Notes: generated from the letters alone by a model not told the origin. A stretch of DNA of 64,000 nucleotides from an uncultured Candidatus Saccharibacteria bacterium (GCA_964561365.1 CAZLPF010000002.1:10068-74067), one strand, 5' to 3'; positions 3 through 60,044 are shown, numbered from the stretch's first letter. Numbers and translations are program-made.

Positions 3-809
3 ATGTTCCTCGTCACCGGCCCGACCGGCAGCGGCAAGTCCACGACGCTCTACACCATGCTCTCGCTGCTGAACACGAAGGGTGTGAACATTTCGACCAT
101 TGAGGACCCGGTCGAGTACCGCATCGTCGGCACGAACCAAATGCAGGTCAGCCCCAAAATTGGCCTGACGTTCGCGCTCGGCCTGCGCTCCCTGCTCCGG
201 CAGGACCCGAACATCATCATGATCGGTGAAATCCGCGACAAAGAGACGGCCGAGGAAGCGGTTCACGCCGCCATGACCGGCCACGTCGTGTTTTCCACCC
301 TCCACACGAACTCGGCGGCCGCGGCGCTGCCGCGGCTCCTGGACATTGGCGTTGAGCCGTACCTCATAGCCTCGACCATGAACGCGGTGCTCGCCCAGCG
401 CCTCGTGCGCGTCATTTGCAAAGACTGCAAGACCGAAATGAAGCTCGACGAGGCGGCCGACAGCAGCCTCCAGAAGCAGTTCCACTTCGACCGCCTCGCC
501 CGCGCCCTCGAGCGGGAGGGGCTCGTGCAGAAGGGCAGCAAGCTCCGGGGCTTCCGCGACCTGCCGTACTTCAGGGGCGAGGGCTGCGACAAGTGCAACC
601 GCACCGGCTACCGCGGCCGCATGGGCATCCACGAGGTGCTCGAGGTTACCCCCGAGATCGGCACCATGATCATGGAGCGCAAAACGTCCCAGGAGATCCA
701 GAACTACGCCGAGGAGCAGGGCATGGTTACGCTCTGGGAGGACGGGTTCATTAAGGCGACGCAGGGCGTTACGACCGTGGAGGAAATCCTCCGCGTGTCC
801 AAGGAGTAG
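3..809 (+). CDS. pilB: Type IV pilus assembly ATPase PilB / GspE family, C-terminal part (5' end lies outside window)
   Basis: In-frame from window edge; Walker [10 protein letters not shown], Asp and His boxes, C-terminal tetracysteine CKDC...CDKC typical of GspE/PilB; followed by pilC-pilM-pilN-pilO. Confidence 0.9.
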
Positions 810-812
810 CGC

Positions 813-2024
813 GTGGCAGAGTACGTCTACGAAGCGGTAACCCACGACGGGCGGCGCGAGTCCGCGAGCATCCAGGCGCCGTCTGCGGCCATGGCCTCGC
901 GCCTGCTCAAGGAGCAGGGGCTCCTGCCGACGCTCGTGCGCGAGAAGAAGACGACCGGCATTCTCGACCGGCTCCGCTCTATTTCGAACATTTCGCTCGA
1001 CGAGAAAATCGGCTTCATTTCCAACCTCGCCATCATGCTGAAAGCCGGCATCCCGCTCGCCCGCGGCATCAGCATCTTGGGCAGGCAGACGCAGAACGTC
1101 CGCTTCCGGGGCATTATTGCCGACGTGCACAGCCAGGTAGAGTCCGGTAAGCCCCTCGGCGAGGCTATGGCCAAGTACCCGGGCGTGTTCTCCGACATTT
1201 TCGTGAGCATGGTCAAGGTCGGCGAGCTCTCCGGCAACCTCGAGAAGAGCCTCGACTACCTCAACGTCCAGCTCTCGCGCGAAGCCGAGCTCCGGGCCAA
1301 GGTCAAGGGCGCCATGATTTACCCCTCGGTCATTGTCGGGGCCATGGTCATCATCGGCGTGCTCATGGCGGTGTTCGTTCTGCCGAAGCTGACCTCGGTG
1401 TTCAAGGACTTCAACACCGACCTGCCCATTACCACGCGCATCATCATGGCCATTGCAGACTTCGCCGGCGCGCACGCCTTCCTCATGATCGGCGGGATTG
1501 TGGCGTTCGCTGCCGGCTTCATTGCCCTGCTGAAGACCGAGCCGGGCGGTCGGGCCTTCGACTGGCTCACCATCCGCATGTTCGTCATCGGCACCGTGGT
1601 TCGCAAGGTCAACCTCGCCCGGTTCGCCCGCATCTTGAGCTCCCTGCTCAAGAGCGGCATCCCCATTGTCCAGAGCCTCGAGGTTACCGGCCAGGCCATG
1701 GGCAACGTCCACTACCGCGAGCGCGTGGTGCAGGGCGGCGCGGACGTGAAGACCGGCAAACCCCTGTCCGAGTCGCTCGGGAGAGACACCGTGCTCTTCC
1801 CGGTGCTCGTCGTTCAGATGCTCCAGGTGGGGGAGGAGAGCGGCACCGTGGAGGTTATCCTCGAAGAGCTCGCCGGCCACTACGAGGACCAGGTCGACGA
1901 TACCTTGAAGAACCTCTCCTCGGTCATTGAGCCCATCCTGCTGCTCATCATCGGCGGGGTGGTGGGTTTCCTCGCACTCGCGCTCATCGGGCCCATTTAC
2001 AACATTAGCCAGACCATCAACTAA
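813..2024 (+). CDS. pilC: Type IV pilus inner-membrane platform protein PilC (GspF family)
   Basis: GTG start 7 nt after AAGGAG; 403 aa with two GspF-type repeats and three TM segments; immediately downstream of pilB. Confidence 0.85.
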   Translation: MAEYVYEAVTHDGRRESASIQAPSAAMASRLLKEQGLLPTLVREKKTTGILDRLRSISNISLDEKIGFISNLAIMLKAGIPLARGISILGRQTQNVRFRGIIADVHSQVESGKPLGEAMAKYPGVFSDIFVSMVKVGELSGNLEKSLDYLNVQLSREAELRAKVKGAMIYPSVIVGAMVIIGVLMAVFVLPKLTSVFKDFNTDLPITTRIIMAIADFAGAHAFLMIGGIVAFAAGFIALLKTEPGGRAFDWLTIRMFVIGTVVRKVNLARFARILSSLLKSGIPIVQSLEVTGQAMGNVHYRERVVQGGADVKTGKPLSESLGRDTVLFPVLVVQMLQVGEESGTVEVILEELAGHYEDQVDDTLKNLSSVIEPILLLIIGGVVGFLALALIGPIYNISQTIN

Positions 2025-45751: not shown

Positions 45752-47200
45752 GTGGCCGAACGAAACACCTTCTACATAACCACGACCCTGCCGTACGTGA
45801 ACAGCAAGCCCCACATGGGGCACGCGCTCGAGTTCGTGCAGGCTGACGTCCTCGCCCGCTACCACCGCCTGCTCGGCGAGCGGGTGGAGTTCAACGTCGG
45901 CACCGACGAGCACGGGCTCAAAATTTACGAGAAGGCCGTCGAGGCGGGGGAAGACCCGAAGGCCTACGCGGACCGCATGGCCGAACAGTTCAAGGCGCTG
46001 AAAGCCACCCTGAACCTCTCGTGGACGCGGTTCATCCGCACGACCGACCCGGCCCACGGGCGCGCCGCCCAGGAGTTCTGGAAACGGTGCCAGGCCAGCG
46101 GCGACATTTACCAGCAGCAGTACCAGGTCAGGTACTGCGTGGGCTGCGAGCTTGAGAAGACCGACTCCGAGCTCGAGAACGGCCGCTGCCTGCTGCACCC
46201 GAACCTCGAGATCCAAAGCATTTCGGAGCTGAATTACTTTTTCCGCTTCTCGAAGTACCAAGAACAGCTGCTCGCGCTCTACGGGCAGCCGGACTTCGTG
46301 GTGCCCGAGGGACGCCGGACCGAAATAGCCGAGTTCGTCCGCGCGGGCCTGAAGGACTTCAGCATTTCGCGGCTGAAAGACAAGCTGCCGTGGGGCGTGG
46401 CGGTGCCCGGCGACGACGCGCAGGTCATGTACGTCTGGTTCGACGCCCTCGTGAACTACATTTCCACCCTCGGGTGGCCCGCCGAAGGCGGCGACTTCAA
46501 AACATTTTGGCCCGGCGTGCAGATTGCGGGCAAAGATAACCTCCGCCAGCAGTCAGCCATGTGGCAGGCCATGCTCATGTCTGCCGGCGTCGCGCCCTCG
46601 AAGCAGATTGTCATTCACGGCTTCGTGACGAGCGGCGGCGAGAAGATGTCGAAGACCGTCGGCAACGTGGTGGACCCGCTCGAGATTGTGCAGCGGTTCG
46701 GCACCGACGCCTTCCGCTTCTGGGTCTGCCACGAGGCGAACACGTTCGAGGATAGCGACTTTACCTGGGAGCGCTTCTCGGACGGCTACGAGTCGAGGCT
46801 CGTCAACGGCGTCGGCAACCTGTTCAGCCGCGTGGTGAAAATGGCCACGAGCTACGGCGTGCCGCCGCCGAGCGGCGACGTGCCGAGCGTTTTCGGGGTG
46901 AACGACGCCTTCAACGCCGCGCTTTCCGCCCACCGCATTTCCGAGGCGGCGCGCCTCGTCTTTGAGCAGGCCGCCGAGCTCGACCGCGAAATCCAGTCGA
47001 AGCAGCCGTTCAAGGTGTTCAAGGAACATCCCGAGCAGGCCCGCGGTGACGTGGCCTCGCTGCTCCTGCGCCTCCGCGAGCTCGCGCTCCGCCTCCAGCC
47101 GTTCCTGCCCGAGACGGCCGAGCGCATGCTCGCGGTGCTCGGGAGCCCATCGTGGCCCGAGCAGCTGCCGCACCTCTTCGAGCGCATCGAAGCGGCCTAA
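45752..47200 (+). CDS. metG: Methionyl-tRNA synthetase (short form)
   Basis: HIGH-type motif PHMGHA, KMSKT; zinc knuckle CxxC...C; GTG start. Confidence 0.9.
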   Translation: MAERNTFYITTTLPYVNSKPHMGHALEFVQADVLARYHRLLGERVEFNVGTDEHGLKIYEKAVEAGEDPKAYADRMAEQFKALKATLNLSWTRFIRTTDPAHGRAAQEFWKRCQASGDIYQQQYQVRYCVGCELEKTDSELENGRCLLHPNLEIQSISELNYFFRFSKYQEQLLALYGQPDFVVPEGRRTEIAEFVRAGLKDFSISRLKDKLPWGVAVPGDDAQVMYVWFDALVNYISTLGWPAEGGDFKTFWPGVQIAGKDNLRQQSAMWQAMLMSAGVAPSKQIVIHGFVTSGGEKMSKTVGNVVDPLEIVQRFGTDAFRFWVCHEANTFEDSDFTWERFSDGYESRLVNGVGNLFSRVVKMATSYGVPPPSGDVPSVFGVNDAFNAALSAHRISEAARLVFEQAAELDREIQSKQPFKVFKEHPEQARGDVASLLLRLRELALRLQPFLPETAERMLAVLGSPSWPEQLPHLFERIEAA

Positions 47201-47212
47201 GGAGCGCGTTCC

Positions 47213-48071
47213 CATGCTCGTCGACACCCACGCCCACGTAAACTTCAGAGCCTTCGCCGCCGACCGCGGCGCGGTGCTAGCGCGCGCCCGTGAGGCGGGC
47301 GTTGCCGTGGTGAACGTCGGCACGCACCTGGGCACCTCGCGCTCGGCGGTAGCCCTGGCGCGCGAAAACCCCGGCCTCGCCTACGCGGTGGTGGGCCTGC
47401 ACCCGGTCCACACCTACGAGCAGGATTTGGAAGAAGAGGGCGACGCGTTCCGCACCCACGGCGACGTGTTCGACGCCGGGGCGTTCCGGGAACTCGCCGG
47501 CGACCCGTCCGTGGTCGGCATCGGCGAGTGCGGGCTCGACTACTACCGGCTGCCGGAAGACGAAGATCCGGCGCCGATCAAGCAGCGCCAGCGCGAGGCC
47601 TTCGCGGCGCAGATCCGCCTGGCCAAAGAGCTGAACAAGGCGCTCGTCATCCACTGCCGTCCAAGTAAAGGCACGCAGGACGCCTACGAAGATATTTTGA
47701 AAATTTTGGACGGGGAGGGGACTGAACGTTTGCGCTTTGAGGCGCACAGCTTTACCGGCACCGCAGAGACGGCGAACGCGTTCGTTTCACGCGGCGCGTA
47801 CATCGGCATCAACGGCATTGTGACCTTCGACAAGACTGGCGAAATGGAGCGCGTGGTCAAGGCCGTGCCGCTCGAGCGCATCGTCCTCGAAACCGACTGC
47901 CCCTACCTCGCGCCCGTGCCCTTCCGGGGGAAACGAAATGAGCCACGGTACGTAATGTCCGTGGCCCAGAAGCTTGCCGAGCTGAAAGGTGTGAGCGGAG
48001 CCGAGGTGGCTGAAGCGACGAACCGTTCCGCCGCAAAGCTATTTGGTGTCCTCCTCGGCGTTGATCTTTAG
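47213..48071 (+). CDS. tatD: TatD family metal-dependent deoxyribonuclease
   Basis: Start at MLVDTHAHVNF after AAGGAGCG SD; HxH, E, H, H, D metal ligands. Confidence 0.9.
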
Positions 48072-48341
48072 CGCCTTCAAGAATTTGTGATCCTGGTTGG
48101 TCCACCTGATCTTCCCGGGCTCACCGGTTGCCGCTTGGGTGTCAGGAGCAAGGGGCAGGTCTTCTCCCGTTTCTCCGTCGTCCCGTTTATTGAAGCCTAT
48201 GGTAGCCTCGAGCACCAGGAACACGTCGTACCCGGCGCGTTTGATCTCACCGATGGCTTCGGCGATGCGGTCAGAGTCAGACAGCGACTCATTGATCGCG
48301 TTGCCGAGCTCTTGCATCAGCTGCATTAACCTTTCGTCCAT
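48039..48341 (-). CDS. Small acidic hypothetical protein
   Basis: Start at MDERLMQ with GGGAGGA SD; 3' end overlaps tatD 3' end by 33 bp (convergent). Confidence 0.45.
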   Translation of the reverse strand: MDERLMQLMQELGNAINESLSDSDRIAEAIGEIKRAGYDVFLVLEATIGFNKRDDGETGEDLPLAPDTQAATGEPGKIRWTNQDHKFLKALKINAEEDTK

Positions 48342-48429
48342 ATATTGCAATCCTCCCGTTTTGCTATGATTTTCCCAAACTTTCTCGTATAGTTTAGCTG
48401 CTAGACAGCCTCGTAACAAGGCTACCCGT

Positions 48430-51400
48430 ATGCCCACTGACCGCTACGATCCAAAAAAAGTAGAAGCCCGATGGCAGAAGCACTGGCTGGCCAAAAAGGT
48501 TTTCAAGGCCAAGGATTTTTCGAAGCGGCCGAAGAAGTACATACTCGTGGAGTTCCCGTACCCGTCGGGCGCGGGCCTGCACATGGGCCACCTGCGCCCG
48601 TACGTCGCCGCCGACGTTTACACCCGCTTCCAGCGCGCGCGCGGACACGAGGTGCTGTTCCCCATCGGCTGGGACGCCTTCGGCCTGCCGGCCGAGAACT
48701 ACGCCATAAAGAACGGCGTGCACCCGAGCGTGTCCACGGCGCAGAACGTGAAGAACGCGAAAGCGCAAATGTTGTCGTGGGGTTTGTCGTTCGACTGGGA
48801 CCGGGAAATCAACACCACCGACCCGAGCTACTACCGTTTTACCCAGCGCATCTTCTTAGAGCTCTACCGCGCGGGGTTGGCCTACGAAGCCACCGGCATG
48901 ATCAACTGGTGCCCGAAGGACAAGACGGGCCTGGCCAACGAAGAGGTCATAGACGGCAAGTGCGAACGCTGCGGCACCGTGGTGGAGAAAAAAGAGCTAC
49001 GGCAGTGGTACCTGAAAATTACCGACTACGCCGACTCCCTGCTCGAGGGTTTGAACGAGCTGCCCGAATGGCCCGAACAGGTCAAGCTCCAGCAGGCGAA
49101 CTGGATCGGCAAGAGCGAGGGGCTCGTTGAGCGCTGGCAGGTTCAAGACATGGACCTCACGCTCGAAACGTTCACGACCTGGCCGCACACGACCTGGGGC
49201 GCGACCTTCATGGTCGTGGCGCCCGAACACCCGGTCATAGATCGGCTCGTGGGCGGCACCGAGCTCGAGAGCGGCGCCAAAAAATTCGCGGCGCGCTGCA
49301 TTGAGGCCAAGATTAAAGATCCCCTGAACGTCGCGAAGGAAAAAGAAGGCTTCTTCACCGGCCGCTACGCCGTAAACTACCTCACCGGTTGGAAGATGCC
49401 CATCTACATTGCCAACTTCGCCATTTACGATTACGGCACCGGTCTGGTGAAGTGCACGCCGGCGCACGACGAGCGCGACTTCGAGTTTGCTAAAAAGTAC
49501 CAGCTGCCGCTCGTGCCGGTGGTGGCGCCCATGGTGGAAGCCGACAACAGCGACTCGGCGCCGAAGCCCGGCCAGCCGGCCCGGAGCCTCGATGTCGCCT
49601 TCTGCGTTATCAAGCACGCGAAACAAGACCGCTACCTGGTGGTCAAGCACCACCGCAGCGGCGTGGACGGCTACCTGGCGTGCTCTGGCTCGCTCGAACC
49701 CGGAGAGACGCCGGAGCAGGCCGGGGAACGCGAGATTCGCGAGGAAACAGGCCTGAAGCATTTCCGTTTCATCCGTTCGCTCGGCGAGCCGGTCTACTTC
49801 AAGTACTTCAAGCCGAGCAAGAACGAGAACCGGCTCCTGAAGCTCATGCCGCTCTACTTTGAGGCTGACTCTGACGAACTCGAACCCACGACCGACTACG
49901 AGAAGGCCAAGCAGGAACCGGTGTGGCTCGACGGAAAAGACATAGAGAAGTTCCTCCGCACCCGTCCGTTCCACCGGACCTTCTACCGCCGCATGCGCGG
50001 CGAGGAGCCGCTCGAGCCGAAAATGGCCGCCGCCTACACCGGCGAAGGCGTCATGATCAACGCCGGCAAATTTATCGGCATGGAGAGCGGGGAAGCGCGC
50101 AGGGCCATTTCGGAGTTTTCCATTGCCGAAGGCCACGCCCGCTACGTGACCAACTACCGCCTGCGCGACTGGGTCTTTTCGCGCCAGCGCTACTGGGGCG
50201 AGCCTATTCCGCTCATCCACTGCGACGCCTGCGCGAGCCGGCCGCAGAAAGCGCTCCTCATTCACGGCTTCGAGGGCAGCCCTGAAGCGAACGAGTTTCC
50301 GTACCTGAAGCGAGAGCTCGAAGCGGCCGGCTTTACCGTCGTGGCACCGAAGCTCGAGGACGCCGACCATCCTACGGTGGAGTCTTGGACCAAGCAGCTC
50401 GTACCGCTCGTGCAGCAGCTCGGGCCGGACGACGTGGTCATGGGCCACAGCCTCGGAGCCAAGGCCGCCATTCTCGCGCTCCTGAAAGCCAAGAAAAAGA
50501 TCAAACACCTGTTCTTAATTGCGGGCACGCTCGGCAAGCTCTCCAAACCGCAGCGCGCCTTCTTTGACCGCGAGTGGCCGGACTCCGACAACGCGGCGCT
50601 CGAAAAGTTCTGGAACGCGCCGGCGAGCCTGAACCAAGCTTCCCGCCTGGCCGGCGAGGTGACTGCGGTACTCTCGGAAGACGACCCGTTCGTTTTGAAA
50701 GAGACCCACGAAAAGCTTCCCCGGAGCTGGAACGTGCTCTTTTGGCAGGGCTACGGCCACTTCGACGGCGAAGTGTACCCCGAGCTGCTCAAGCTCATCC
50801 TGTCAGCGAAGAACAGCGGCATTGTGCCGGTGCCGGAAAAAGATCTGCCGGTGCGCCTGCCGAACGTTGCCAAGTACGAACCGACGGGAACGGGGGAGTC
50901 GCCGCTCGCCGGCATCGACAGCTGGGTCAACGTCCGCTGCCCGGTCTGCAAGGGCCCGGGCCGGCGCGAGACGAACACCATGCCGCAGTGGGCCGGCAGC
51001 AGCTGGTACTGGCTGCGCTATGCAGACCCCAAAAATACCAAAGCCATTGCAGACAAGAGGAAGCTCGGCTACTGGCAGCCGGTTGATGTTTACTTCGGCG
51101 GCATGGAGCACACGACGCTGCACCTGCTCTACGCCCGTTTCTGGAATCAATTCCTCTTCGACCGCGGGCTCGCCACCTGCCGCGAGCCGTTCGAAAAGCG
51201 CGTGCCGCACGGCATTGTCCTCGGCCCCGACGGCGAGAAGATGTCCAAGAGCCGCGGCAACGTGGTGAACCCGCAGGACTTCGTGGAGAAGTTCGGCGCG
51301 GACGCGACCCGCATGTACGAAATGTTCCTTGGGCCGCACGGCGAAACCATCGCCTGGAACGAGCAGGGTATTTTGGGCGTCCGCCGCTTCCTCGACCGCG

Positions 51401-51924
51401 TCTGGACCTGGGGCAACGAAGTTGTCTCTGCCCCGCACGCGAAACAGAAAACCGCCGTTGAAACCGAGAAGGTCGACCGCCTGCTCCACAAGCTGACGAA
51501 GAAAATTACCGAAGACCTCAACGCGTTCCGTTTCAACACCTGCGTCTCGGCGTTCATGGAGTTCCATAACGAGGTCAAAGACGAATTCATTTCACTCGCG
51601 GGTCTGCGCCGGTTCCTGTCCCTCATGCATCCGTTCGCGCCGCACCTTGCTGAAGAGCTGGCGAGCTGCGCCGGGGTAAAGCGCAGCCTGCAGCTTGAGC
51701 CGTGGCCCGAGTTCGACCCGGCAAAGGTTGCCGACGCGACCGTGACCGTCGTGGTGCAGGTCAACGGAAAAGTTCGCGGCAGCATGGAGGTGGCGGCGAC
51801 CGCACCGCAAGATGAAGTTCAGGCAAAAGCCGTAGCGCTCCCGTCGGTGAAAGCCCACCTCGGCGGCGGGGTCATCAAGCGCGCGGTCTTCGTGCCCGGC
51901 AAGCTTTTAAACCTGGTTGTGTAG
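48430..51924 (+). CDS. leuS: Leucyl-tRNA synthetase with two inserted enzymatic domains (NUDIX and alpha/beta serine hydrolase)
   Basis: HMGH, editing domain (TTWPHT...PAHDERD), YRLRDWVFSRQRYWGEPIP, KMSKS; single uninterrupted 1164-aa ORF, about 300 aa longer than typical LeuRS. Confidence 0.9.
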   Translation: MPTDRYDPKKVEARWQKHWLAKKVFKAKDFSKRPKKYILVEFPYPSGAGLHMGHLRPYVAADVYTRFQRARGHEVLFPIGWDAFGLPAENYAIKNGVHPSVSTAQNVKNAKAQMLSWGLSFDWDREINTTDPSYYRFTQRIFLELYRAGLAYEATGMINWCPKDKTGLANEEVIDGKCERCGTVVEKKELRQWYLKITDYADSLLEGLNELPEWPEQVKLQQANWIGKSEGLVERWQVQDMDLTLETFTTWPHTTWGATFMVVAPEHPVIDRLVGGTELESGAKKFAARCIEAKIKDPLNVAKEKEGFFTGRYAVNYLTGWKMPIYIANFAIYDYGTGLVKCTPAHDERDFEFAKKYQLPLVPVVAPMVEADNSDSAPKPGQPARSLDVAFCVIKHAKQDRYLVVKHHRSGVDGYLACSGSLEPGETPEQAGEREIREETGLKHFRFIRSLGEPVYFKYFKPSKNENRLLKLMPLYFEADSDELEPTTDYEKAKQEPVWLDGKDIEKFLRTRPFHRTFYRRMRGEEPLEPKMAAAYTGEGVMINAGKFIGMESGEARRAISEFSIAEGHARYVTNYRLRDWVFSRQRYWGEPIPLIHCDACASRPQKALLIHGFEGSPEANEFPYLKRELEAAGFTVVAPKLEDADHPTVESWTKQLVPLVQQLGPDDVVMGHSLGAKAAILALLKAKKKIKHLFLIAGTLGKLSKPQRAFFDREWPDSDNAALEKFWNAPASLNQASRLAGEVTAVLSEDDPFVLKETHEKLPRSWNVLFWQGYGHFDGEVYPELLKLILSAKNSGIVPVPEKDLPVRLPNVAKYEPTGTGESPLAGIDSWVNVRCPVCKGPGRRETNTMPQWAGSSWYWLRYADPKNTKAIADKRKLGYWQPVDVYFGGMEHTTLHLLYARFWNQFLFDRGLATCREPFEKRVPHGIVLGPDGEKMSKSRGNVVNPQDFVEKFGADATRMYEMFLGPHGETIAWNEQGILGVRRFLDRVWTWGNEVVSAPHAKQKTAVETEKVDRLLHKLTKKITEDLNAFRFNTCVSAFMEFHNEVKDEFISLAGLRRFLSLMHPFAPHLAEELASCAGVKRSLQLEPWPEFDPAKVADATVTVVVQVNGKVRGSMEVAATAPQDEVQAKAVALPSVKAHLGGGVIKRAVFVPGKLLNLVV
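49540..50019 (+). other. NUDIX hydrolase domain inserted in LeuRS after the editing domain
   Basis: Perfect Nudix box GSLEPGETPEQAGEREIREETGL (Gx5Ex7REUxEExGU) at 49687-49755; insertion bounded by LeuRS segments AKKYQLPLVPVV and GVMINAGKF. Confidence 0.7.
50236..50814 (+). other. Alpha/beta serine-hydrolase domain (RBBP9/YdeN-like) inserted inside LeuRS zinc knuckle
   Basis: LIHGFEGS, nucleophile elbow GHSLG (50443-50457), DDP and GHF triad elements; inserted between HCDAC and conserved VPVPEKDLPVRLP / RCPVC. Confidence 0.7.
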
Positions 51925-56014: not shown

Positions 56015-56017
56015 CGC
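56009..56017 (+). promoter_or_regulatory. Extended -10 TGGTAGAAT immediately upstream of tRNA-Leu
   Basis: Within uppP 3' end; 7 nt before tRNA 5' end. Confidence 0.4.
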
Positions 56018-56024
56018 CGGAGTG

Positions 56025-56108
56025 GCGGAATGGCAGACGCACGCGACTCAAAATCGCGCGGGGAAACCCATGAGGGTTCGACTCCCTCCTCCGGCACCAC
56101 GGGCCCTG
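56025..56108 (+). tRNA. tRNA-Leu (anticodon CAA)
   Basis: Long variable arm, anticodon loop CTCAAAA, acceptor GCCGGAG/CTCCGGC, CCA encoded. Confidence 0.9.
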
Positions 56109-59540: not shown

Positions 59541-60044
59541 ATGGCCGAAATAAAAAAACGTCGAAAATCAAAACTGTCCACAGCTGCTAAAAAACCTCCG
59601 GGGTGGCTGTCTGACCGCGAGTACCTCCGGATTTTTTCCCGCGTGCCGCGCCTGTGCGTTGACCTGGCCATTTTGGGACCCGGCGGGCTGCTGCTGGGCT
59701 GGCGCAGCCACGACCCGAGCCCGAACACCTGGAACCTTCCCGGTGGCCGCGTCCGCTTCCGGGAAACCGTAACGAAAGCGGCCCAGCGGATTGCCCGAAC
59801 CGAGCTCGGCGTCGGGCTGCGGGGGATTCGCGTGCTCGGCGTCATGGAGTTTTTAAACGAGGTGGACCGCGGGACGCCGATTCACTCCGTGAGCGTCGTT
59901 GTTTCAGCGTCGCTCGCCGGCAAACTGAAGCCGAACGGCCGCACCGCCCGGTTTCGGCACGTGCCCCGTTCGTTCTACCCGGTGCACCGCCGGTTCGCGC
60001 TCGTGCATGGCCTCATCCGTCCCGGTCCGCATTCGGCCCGCTGA
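59541..60044 (+). CDS. NUDIX-fold protein with degenerate Nudix box
   Basis: PGGRVRFRETVTKAAQRIARTELGV: Gx5E and R..E..G retained but REUxEE reduced to RIARTE. Confidence 0.55.
   Translation: MAEIKKRRKSKLSTAAKKPPGWLSDREYLRIFSRVPRLCVDLAILGPGGLLLGWRSHDPSPNTWNLPGGRVRFRETVTKAAQRIARTELGVGLRGIRVLGVMEFLNEVDRGTPIHSVSVVVSASLAGKLKPNGRTARFRHVPRSFYPVHRRFALVHGLIRPGPHSAR

Follow-up and report, generated by a model that had tools for sequence, protein, structure and literature searches.

In a 64,000-nucleotide stretch of the assembled genome of an uncultured Candidatus Saccharibacteria bacterium (GCA_964561365.1, CAZLPF010000002.1:10068-74067; the whole stretch is called the window below), the plus-strand gene leuS (48430..51924) encodes a leucyl-tRNA synthetase (LeuRS) that carries two further catalytic domains inside its own core, namely a Nudix hydrolase nested in the CP1 editing domain and an alpha/beta serine hydrolase of the Pfam family PF06821 nested in a zinc module. 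The protein is the housekeeping LeuRS of a bacterium of the Patescibacteria (candidate phyla radiation, CPR) and is conventional apart from these inserts. Judged from sequence and predicted structure, both inserts are catalytically intact-looking members of their families that fold separately. Such mosaic enzymes are widespread among the closest relatives, and sequence comparison points to cargo domains that are gained, lost, and exchanged independently of the LeuRS core by cassette replacement at fixed hot spots. Tentatively, the serine hydrolase may work with LeuRS as an accessory enzyme that hydrolyzes aminoacyl esters or adenylates.

The gene is one continuous open reading frame (ORF) of 1164 amino acids, as the original prediction (an earlier reading of the same DNA) had proposed; it starts with ATG and has an even GC content along its length. 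Its product scores 932.5 bits against the TIGR00396 model (leuS_bact, curated cut-off 548.4) and matches the LeuRS of Thermus thermophilus (Tth, 1h3n) with an E-value of 4.9e-205, while Pfam detects the LeuRS editing domain, the class I catalytic pieces, and Anticodon_1. All of the LeuRS motifs that had been quoted (Table 1) are present, and a conventional core surrounds the inserts. The two class I signatures are kept in all 120 relatives described below, as HMGH, HVGH, or HSGH and as KMSK[SRT]. The insert borders were set by HMMER alignment of the query to Tth LeuRS, which gives four collinear blocks (query residues 4-365, 524-602, 797-932, and 937-1164 aligned with Tth 2-362, 365-443, 443-579, and 637-876, respectively), with at most two reference residues replaced per insert. 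The borders first suggested thereby moved slightly, from about 371-530 to 366-523 for the Nudix domain and from about 603-795 to 603-796 for the hydrolase. The enzyme is oversized, as had been noted, and the estimated excess of about 300 residues becomes 352 residues over a core of 812. The core is this short because the leucine-specific domain (Tth ~580-636) has no counterpart in the query, where residues ~932-937 lead straight to KMSKS. AgnB2 and Helicobacter pylori LeuRS likewise lack this domain (PMC5059758). The CP1 editing domain is recognized through its PF13603 match and the Asp of the AHDERD motif. Its T-rich motif reads TTWPHT, a form that is common only to the relatives P0001-P0004 and P0099, while most relatives have TTRPDT and another subgroup has YDSVPQT. 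No clean pattern was seen between the state of this motif and the presence of cargo in the LeuRS relatives compared.

The first insert is matched by the Pfam NUDIX model (PF00293) over residues 389-521 (E 4e-13, 50 bits; gathering cut-off 21.1), and its Nudix box GSLEPGETPEQAGEREIREETGL is fully canonical, as had been claimed, with all 9 specified positions of GX5EX7REUXEEXGU in place (including E426, R434, E435, E438, and E439). The domain had originally been placed at the junction between the editing domain and the catalytic core, and this placement did not hold. When the inserts are deleted in silico, the PF13603 match (model positions 2-182 of 185) runs unbroken through the former position of the Nudix domain, which places this domain within CP1, in a variable loop. 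Both inserts lie in loops at the surface of the synthetase. The nesting has three levels, with the Nudix domain in CP1 and CP1 itself inserted in the Rossmann fold. When predicted alone, the insert folds as an independent alpha/beta/alpha Nudix domain with a predicted local distance difference test (pLDDT) score of 90.2. Downstream of the box, the Nudix inserts have a motif of their own, in which an aromatic pair (+16 to +18) is followed by HKxxNR (+21 to +26). The subfamily of diadenosine tetraphosphate (Ap4A) hydrolases is marked by an invariant Tyr downstream of the box (PMC6856373); the inserts have F or Y at +16 to +18 rather than an invariant Tyr, and the Ap4A hydrolase 3I7U is among the best template modeling (TM) scores, on a par with members of other Nudix subfamilies. 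Ap4A is a possible substrate that no result favors.

The second insert matches the Ser_hydrolase family PF06821 over residues 609-778 (E 8.7e-12, 45.7 bits; cut-off 22), and Abhydrolase_6 and Abhydrolase_1 also score above their own cut-offs. The location after HCDAC in a zinc module stands as predicted; the label ZN-1 does not, as the insert splits the second Cys4 cluster (aligned with Tth C439/C442...C484/C487), which would be ZN-2 in the reported naming (Cusack 2000). The proposed kinship with RBBP9 and YdeN and the proposed Ser-Asp-His triad are both borne out: Ser674, Asp752, and His777 align with S75, D138, and H165 of RBBP9, the profile of the insert family retrieves YdeN (E 2.3e-33) and RBBP9 (E 2.6e-24) from the PDB, and the AlphaFold2 (AF2) model of the insert alone (pLDDT 96.7) superimposes in Foldseek on 1uxo (TM 0.81) and 7oex (TM 0.79). 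The equivalents of RBBP9 F140/L141 are conserved in the inserts as an aromatic and an aliphatic residue, and the equivalent of Y99 is not conserved or not alignable. No Pfam or NCBIfam matches to tRNA_SAD/AlaX, YbaK, or Dtd were obtained with the inserts, and the hydrolase, if it is a deacylase, would therefore be one of a new kind.

An artefact or a non-enzymatic element (chimeric assembly, frameshift, intein, intron, or pseudo-domains in decay) would be the trivial explanation for such a gene. Apart from the origin of the window in a metagenome-type assembly, nothing specific speaks for it. An intein can be rejected as the inserts have Nudix and alpha/beta hydrolase folds, not HINT folds, and no Pfam intein model matches; an intron or an assembly chimera is rejected based on the continuous ORF, the uniform codon usage, the folded inserts, and the absence of flanking repeats, none of which were found at the insert borders. 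In GC content, GC3, and codon usage, the inserts do not differ from the core or from neighboring genes, and the catalytic residues are intact. Moreover, the same arrangement of Nudix and hydrolase at the same two sites recurs in many independent assemblies. The artefact reading is thus effectively refuted.

The distribution of the inserts was studied in the best 120 LeuRS clusters (90% identity) from a search with the full protein, for which the core was defined from the 19 sequences of at most 835 aa and a large insert was defined as one of at least 100 aa. The architecture was first presented as one without a known precedent; no published description was indeed found, but the query is not singular, as 96 of these 120 clusters carry at least one large insert and only 24 carry none. 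Per sequence, 55 carry only the hydrolase, 15 only the Nudix domain, and 19 both. Insertions concentrate at four hot spots, given here in query residues: site D (~207), site A (~240, a hairpin just upstream of the T-rich editing motif), site B (~370, the loop with the Nudix domain of the query), and site C (~600, the zinc module). Based on homology to the two inserts of the query, 114 of the 122 large inserts could be classified. Hydrolase cargo is found at site A (55), site C (22), and site B (1); Nudix cargo is found mostly at site B (34), with one case each at sites A and D, and one further Nudix cargo was recognized by Pfam. The two families thus turn up at no fewer than four loops. Layouts that are more extreme also occur: P0143 (1184 aa) has a Nudix domain and a hydrolase in tandem within site B, P0155 (1169 aa) has two tandem hydrolases at site A, and P0005 (1303 aa) and P0086 (1278 aa) each have two Nudix domains and one hydrolase.

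All named relatives belong to the Patescibacteria. Among species-representative genomes, the layout of the query (Nudix at site B and hydrolase at site C) is present in Magasanikbacteria, the hydrolase at site A in Doudnabacteria, and the Nudix domain alone at site B in Uhrbacteria, Nomurabacteria, Doudnabacteria, and Paceibacterota, while the non-CPR relatives in such genomes have no such inserts. LeuRS proteins with a CPR-type Nudix insert were also encountered in records labeled Bacilli or Gammaproteobacteria (L042, CAJTZC010000001.1, and several third-party annotation (TPA) records of uncultured Gammaproteobacteria/Saccharibacteria), which are probably mislabeled metagenome-assembled genomes (MAGs) of Patescibacteria. 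Loci of Doudnabacteria seemed to hold giant LeuRS genes (4.5-5.1 kb), a reading that was discarded, as the extra length comes from a MetRS lying upstream that matches the class I core.

The cargo is under strong purifying selection at its catalytic residues. In the 78 hydrolase inserts, the nucleophilic Ser and the His are invariant (78/78 each), the acid is always present (71 Asp and 7 Glu), and 73 retain the oxyanion His; a perfect Nudix box is found in 27 of 36 Nudix inserts, and the box is decayed in a few. The cargo and the core do not share one history. The core of the query is 72%, 65%, and 68% identical to those of P0002, P0004, and P0003, respectively, while the hydrolase at the same site is only 28% (P0002) and 25% (P0004) identical and the Nudix domain at the same site only 26% (P0003), with the drop in identity falling abruptly at the insert borders. 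P0116, on the other hand, has a core that is 50% identical and a hydrolase that is 52% identical. From this mismatch between cargo and core it follows that cargo has been replaced at fixed slots, and the scattering of insert-less forms in the tree implies repeated cargo gain or loss. Two main hydrolase sequence types can be distinguished: type I, the main site-C group including the query, and type II, the site-A group together with P0002 and P0004 (site C). The query hydrolase is more similar to free-standing proteins (35-41% identity) than to type II (22-28%), and in a neighbor-joining tree of the embedded domains and the 131 nearest representatives having a full-length hydrolase domain, the embedded hydrolases fall into three or more separate clusters, with free-standing proteins of ~190 aa interspersed. 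Different loops have thus acquired the same cargo families repeatedly, in independent events. Important to note here is that the trees are distance-based and unbootstrapped, which gives event counts a lower confidence than the incongruence between core and cargo.

What the serine hydrolase may act on is best approached through RBBP9, the only characterized relative for which a substrate class is known. [quoted passage not shown] Going by an entry in a reference list, it has also been named as an enzyme activating valacyclovir, a valyl ester; ML-005, a relative from bacteria, has short-chain esterase activity (PMC6119806). The peptidase activity, and the capture of Leu/Ile in the acyl-enzyme trap, would be in line with a role in substrate supply, in which the domain would free N-terminal leucine or other hydrophobic residues from scavenged peptides close to the site of synthesis in an auxotrophic cell. 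We regard such a role as very improbable: a free amino acid would have to be channeled over tens of angstroms with no obvious gain, RBBP9 prefers aromatic residues, and the Nudix partner as well as the fusion to a tRNA-binding domain described next would be left unexplained.

Relatives of the hydrolase were collected by exhaustive phmmer as the 150 nearest representatives among 1.84 billion proteins. Of the 32 multi-domain proteins in this set, 22 are LeuRS, and no other synthetase is found. Separately, the PF06821 hydrolase is fused to a tRNA-binding domain of the MetRS-C-terminal/Trbp111 type in at least 15 clusters with 40-49% mutual identity, comprising ~300-aa Patescibacteria proteins (P0209 and P0272-P0285; e.g., L084 5001-5903 and L081 5001-5888) whose tRNA-binding domain passes the TIGR00399 cut-off. 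Members are annotated as 'methionine--tRNA ligase subunit beta' (NCBI, JGI), and one lies in a Harrisonbacteria MAG; the gene neighborhoods of this fusion were uninformative. Because of the RBBP9 chemistry, the bias toward LeuRS as host, and this separate fusion to a tRNA-binding domain, a role linked to aminoacyl groups or tRNA is favored. The tethered serine hydrolase would be a hydrolase of alpha-aminoacyl esters (or mixed anhydrides), in which Ser674, Asp752, and His777 would act on a synthetase product, either mis-acylated tRNA-Leu or released non-cognate aminoacyl-AMP, and split off its aminoacyl group, which would carry a free alpha-amine. The hydrolase would in this way act next to CP1 as an auxiliary module of quality control. 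At the same place, a nucleoside-diphosphate-X by-product would be hydrolyzed by the Nudix domain, with Ap4A or another adenylylated species as one candidate. A built-in by-product or proofreading module had been suggested before; its esterase part gains support from the RBBP9 chemistry and the tRNA-binding fusion, while a link of the Nudix domain to Ap4A or adenylates is supported by no result.

Several observations weigh against this proposal. CP1 is retained with its universal Asp, and a second deacylase is for that reason not obviously needed. The alpha-amine anchor of RBBP9, Glu108, has no clearly conserved equivalent in the inserts, where the lid region aligns unreliably, and the fold matches of the Nudix domain are flat across subfamilies, with 3I7U, NudI, NUDT7, DIPP, NudC, and RppH scoring equally. 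LeuRS loops also hold other cargo, namely an S-adenosylmethionine (SAM)-dependent methyltransferase (~221 aa), a HAD-like hydrolase (~210-215 aa), a possible ASCH domain (~145 aa, weak similarity), and a 133-aa domain without a family match. Cargo outside the Nudix and PF06821 families is carried at site B by P0018, P0053, P0065, L010, L013, P0069, and P0022 and at site C by P0090 and P0091, and the HAD cargo occupies a further site past the second CxxC in L008 and L028. The PF06821 family itself is fused to adenylate kinase, LspA (signal peptidase II), SET, and a SecA wing/scaffold as well (P0263, P0220, P0206, and P0238). Direct fusions of Nudix and hydrolase domains exist in both orders (P0223 and P0198), but their Nudix subtype differs from that of the LeuRS inserts, which makes them weak evidence for a specific pairing. 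Finally, insert-less LeuRS are interleaved all through the core tree, and the cargo is therefore dispensable for aminoacylation. Taken together, the mixed cargo and the varied hydrolase fusions look like promiscuous fusion.

Part of these observations feeds the main rival explanation, according to which the inserts are uncoupled passengers, i.e., house-cleaning enzymes with substrates of their own that have lodged in insertion-tolerant loops of an essential, constitutive gene in streamlined CPR genomes, with LeuRS providing only a scaffold and expression. Besides the diverse cargo, the other fusions, and the frequent gain, loss, and replacement, this explanation can draw on the fast divergence of the Nudix insert (mean pairwise identity of 0.30 against 0.61 for the core) and on the great abundance of PF06821 proteins that stand alone in Patescibacteria. 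It does not, however, account for the concentration of multi-domain hydrolases in LeuRS, for the dominance of two families among the large inserts, or for the independent and repeated recruitment of these same families at different loops, and it leaves both the tRNA-binding fusion and the aminoacyl chemistry of RBBP9 as coincidences. We consider it somewhat less likely than the coupled hydrolase.

The patchy, fast-turnover, and exchange-prone distribution of the cargo is also reminiscent of conflict and resistance genes. LeuRS could accordingly carry a built-in antidote, with the cargo inactivating inhibitors that mimic the aminoacyl-adenylate (of the TM84 or sulfamoyl-adenosine type) at their target, an idea to which we give a small chance. 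In this reading, the hydrolase would cleave the aminoacyl-nucleotide link, the Nudix or HAD domain would cleave the phosphate link, and the methyltransferase would modify the inhibitor. A Trojan-horse antibiotic targeting LeuRS is known together with a self-immunity LeuRS (PMC5059758). The cargo belongs to enzyme classes classically known for inactivating small molecules, and an NCBIfam model for an 'IleRS with N-acetyltransferase domain' (NF040702) exists. A parallel is the known acetylation of processed microcin C by MccE/RimL. Yet this evidence is circumstantial and no inhibitor is known for these organisms, PADLOC gives a single weak match, to PDC-S07 with the Nudix insert, and no match with the hydrolase, and the inserts are old, with the codon usage of the host gene.

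Returning to the coupled aminoacyl-ester or adenylate hydrolase, a broader version of this proposal can be formulated, although it is doubtful at present: the Patescibacteria PF06821 hydrolase might constitute a new and structurally unrelated class of aminoacyl-tRNA/aminoacyl-adenylate proofreading enzymes, acting in cis from LeuRS loops and in trans as free-standing or Trbp111-fused proteins, with the LeuRS loops as cargo slots whose content is swapped between lineages.

The features of leuS and of its surroundings are compiled in Table 1. The neighbors are housekeeping genes (metG, tatD, a gene of the Sua5/YrdC family, an MFS transporter gene, SHMT, and uppP), followed by tRNA-Leu(CAA), parB, a lyase gene, tRNA-Pro, and a stand-alone Nudix gene. 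The order metG-(tatD)-leuS recurs in many Patescibacteria loci (e.g., L005, L010, L013, L027, L030, L036, and L037). The MetRS of the window is short (482 aa) and lacks a C-terminal tRNA-binding domain. The 64-kb window has no other copies of either insert family. The second Nudix gene with a degenerate box that had been reported is real (167 aa, PF00293 E 6.7e-13), with the box reading GRVRFRE...RIARTELGV (RE to RI and EE to TE), and it does not match the profile of the LeuRS inserts, so it is not of the insert subtype. Between tatD and leuS lies a minus-strand ORF of 132 aa with no Pfam match, and the GC content dips around the start of leuS to the minimum of the neighborhood (0.50-0.54 versus 0.63).

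Table 1. Features of leuS and its surroundings in the 64,000-nucleotide window (residues counted in the LeuRS protein; Tth, T. thermophilus LeuRS)
Feature	Residues	Window position	Strand	Content and evidence
metG		45752-47200		MetRS gene
metG-(tatD) stretch before leuS		45752-48071		order recurs with leuS in Patescibacteria loci
ORF between tatD and leuS		48039-48437	-	132 aa
GC dip		48100-48550		neighborhood minimum
leuS, whole		48430..51924	+	812-aa core and two nested inserts; TIGR00396, Pfam, Tth alignment
Core segment 1	1-365	48430..49524	+	N-terminal half of Rossmann fold; aligned with Tth 2-362
HIGH motif, HMGH	51-54	48580-48591	+	in core segment 1
First Cys cluster, CPKD...CERC		48910-48972	+	in core segment 1
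CP1, N-terminal part	224-365		+	in core segment 1
T-rich motif, TTWPHT	249-254	49174-49191	+	in CP1, N-terminal part
AHDERD	345-350	49462-49479	+	in CP1, N-terminal part
Insert 1, Nudix	366-523	49525..49998	+	nested in CP1
Nudix box	420-442	49687-49755	+	in insert 1
Core segment 2	524-602	49999..50235	+	C-terminal part of CP1, return strand YRLRDW, RQRYWGEPIP; Tth 365-443
First CxxC of second zinc module, HCDAC		50218-50232	+	in core segment 2
Insert 2, PF06821 hydrolase	603-796	50236..50817	+	Pfam, insert-family profile, AF2, Foldseek
Oxyanion HG, LIHGF		50257-50271	+	in insert 2
Nucleophile Ser in GHSLG	674	50449-50451	+	in insert 2
Acid, Asp	752	50683-50685	+	in insert 2
His	777	50758-50760	+	in insert 2
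Core segment 3	797-1164	50818..51921	+	Tth 443-579 and 637-876; Rossmann C-terminal half, anticodon-binding domain (Anticodon_1), C-terminal domain
CPVC		50938-50949	+	in core segment 3
RETNTM	846-851		+	in core segment 3
Site of the absent leucine-specific domain	~932-937	51220-51240	+	leads straight to KMSKS
KMSKS	937-941	51238-51252	+	in core segment 3
tRNA-Leu(CAA)		56016-56099		
Stand-alone Nudix		59541-60044	+	167 aa

Compared with the canonical LeuRS of T. thermophilus (1H3N/2BYT) and Escherichia coli (4AQ7), the query shares the end-to-end core, HIGH, KMSKS, CP1 with its universal Asp, the two Cys clusters, the anticodon-binding domain, and the C-terminal domain; it differs in the 352 additional residues that form two foreign catalytic domains, in lacking the leucine-specific domain, and in having TTWPHT instead of TTRPDT. 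The hydrolase insert resembles YdeN of Bacillus subtilis (1UXO) and human RBBP9 (2QS9/7OEX) in its size (~190 aa), its lid-less alpha/beta fold, the catalytic triad, and the HG oxyanion motif, but those proteins are free-standing, whereas the domain of the query is embedded in the zinc knuckle of an aminoacyl-tRNA synthetase (aaRS) and does not clearly conserve Glu108. Among the Nudix hydrolases compared (the Aquifex Ap4A hydrolase 3I7U, AtNUDT7, NudI, DIPP, NudC, and RppH), no subfamily is singled out, and the insert is set apart by its nesting in CP1. AlaX, YbaK/ProXp, and Dtd are free-standing trans-editing deacylases that clear mis-made aminoacyl esters. The logic proposed here is similar to theirs, and the Patescibacteria hydrolase/tRNA-binding fusion has the layout of a trans-editing factor, but the alpha/beta serine hydrolase fold is unrelated and shows no Pfam similarity to them. 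The use of an aaRS as a scaffold for a second catalytic activity is likewise seen in NF040702, and mycobacterial LysX, a LysRS-MprF fusion, is another aaRS with an accessory enzyme domain. The cargo of the query family differs from that of both, is internally nested, occupies several alternative loops, and is exchanged between lineages.

Public databases already hold these proteins as leucine-tRNA ligase, including a sequence identical to the query (NCBI), and one JGI label reads 'leucyl-tRNA synthetase/predicted alpha/beta hydrolase family esterase'. In the full-text literature searched (LeuRS or aaRS with Nudix, CPR/Patescibacteria, insertions), no description of a LeuRS with these inserts was found. 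The parts and the host are thus known; no description was found there of how they are combined and nested, of the several alternative slots, or of the exchange of cargo.

Few enzymes have been studied as thoroughly as the aaRS, whose proofreading domains (CP1, INS, N2, AlaX, YbaK, and Dtd) are thought to be well catalogued. Against this background, members of the same two hydrolase families have entered the single LeuRS of a bacterial superphylum again and again, with their catalytic residues under purifying selection. An action of the serine hydrolase on aminoacyl esters, if real, would add a new editing fold, give the orphan YdeN/RBBP9 family a physiological role, and bear on translation accuracy in the ultra-small, auxotrophic CPR cells. 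Even with functionally independent cargo, these enzymes represent a natural case of three-level domain nesting with exchangeable slots in an essential enzyme, which is useful in engineering proteins and in studying how genes fuse while genomes are streamlined.

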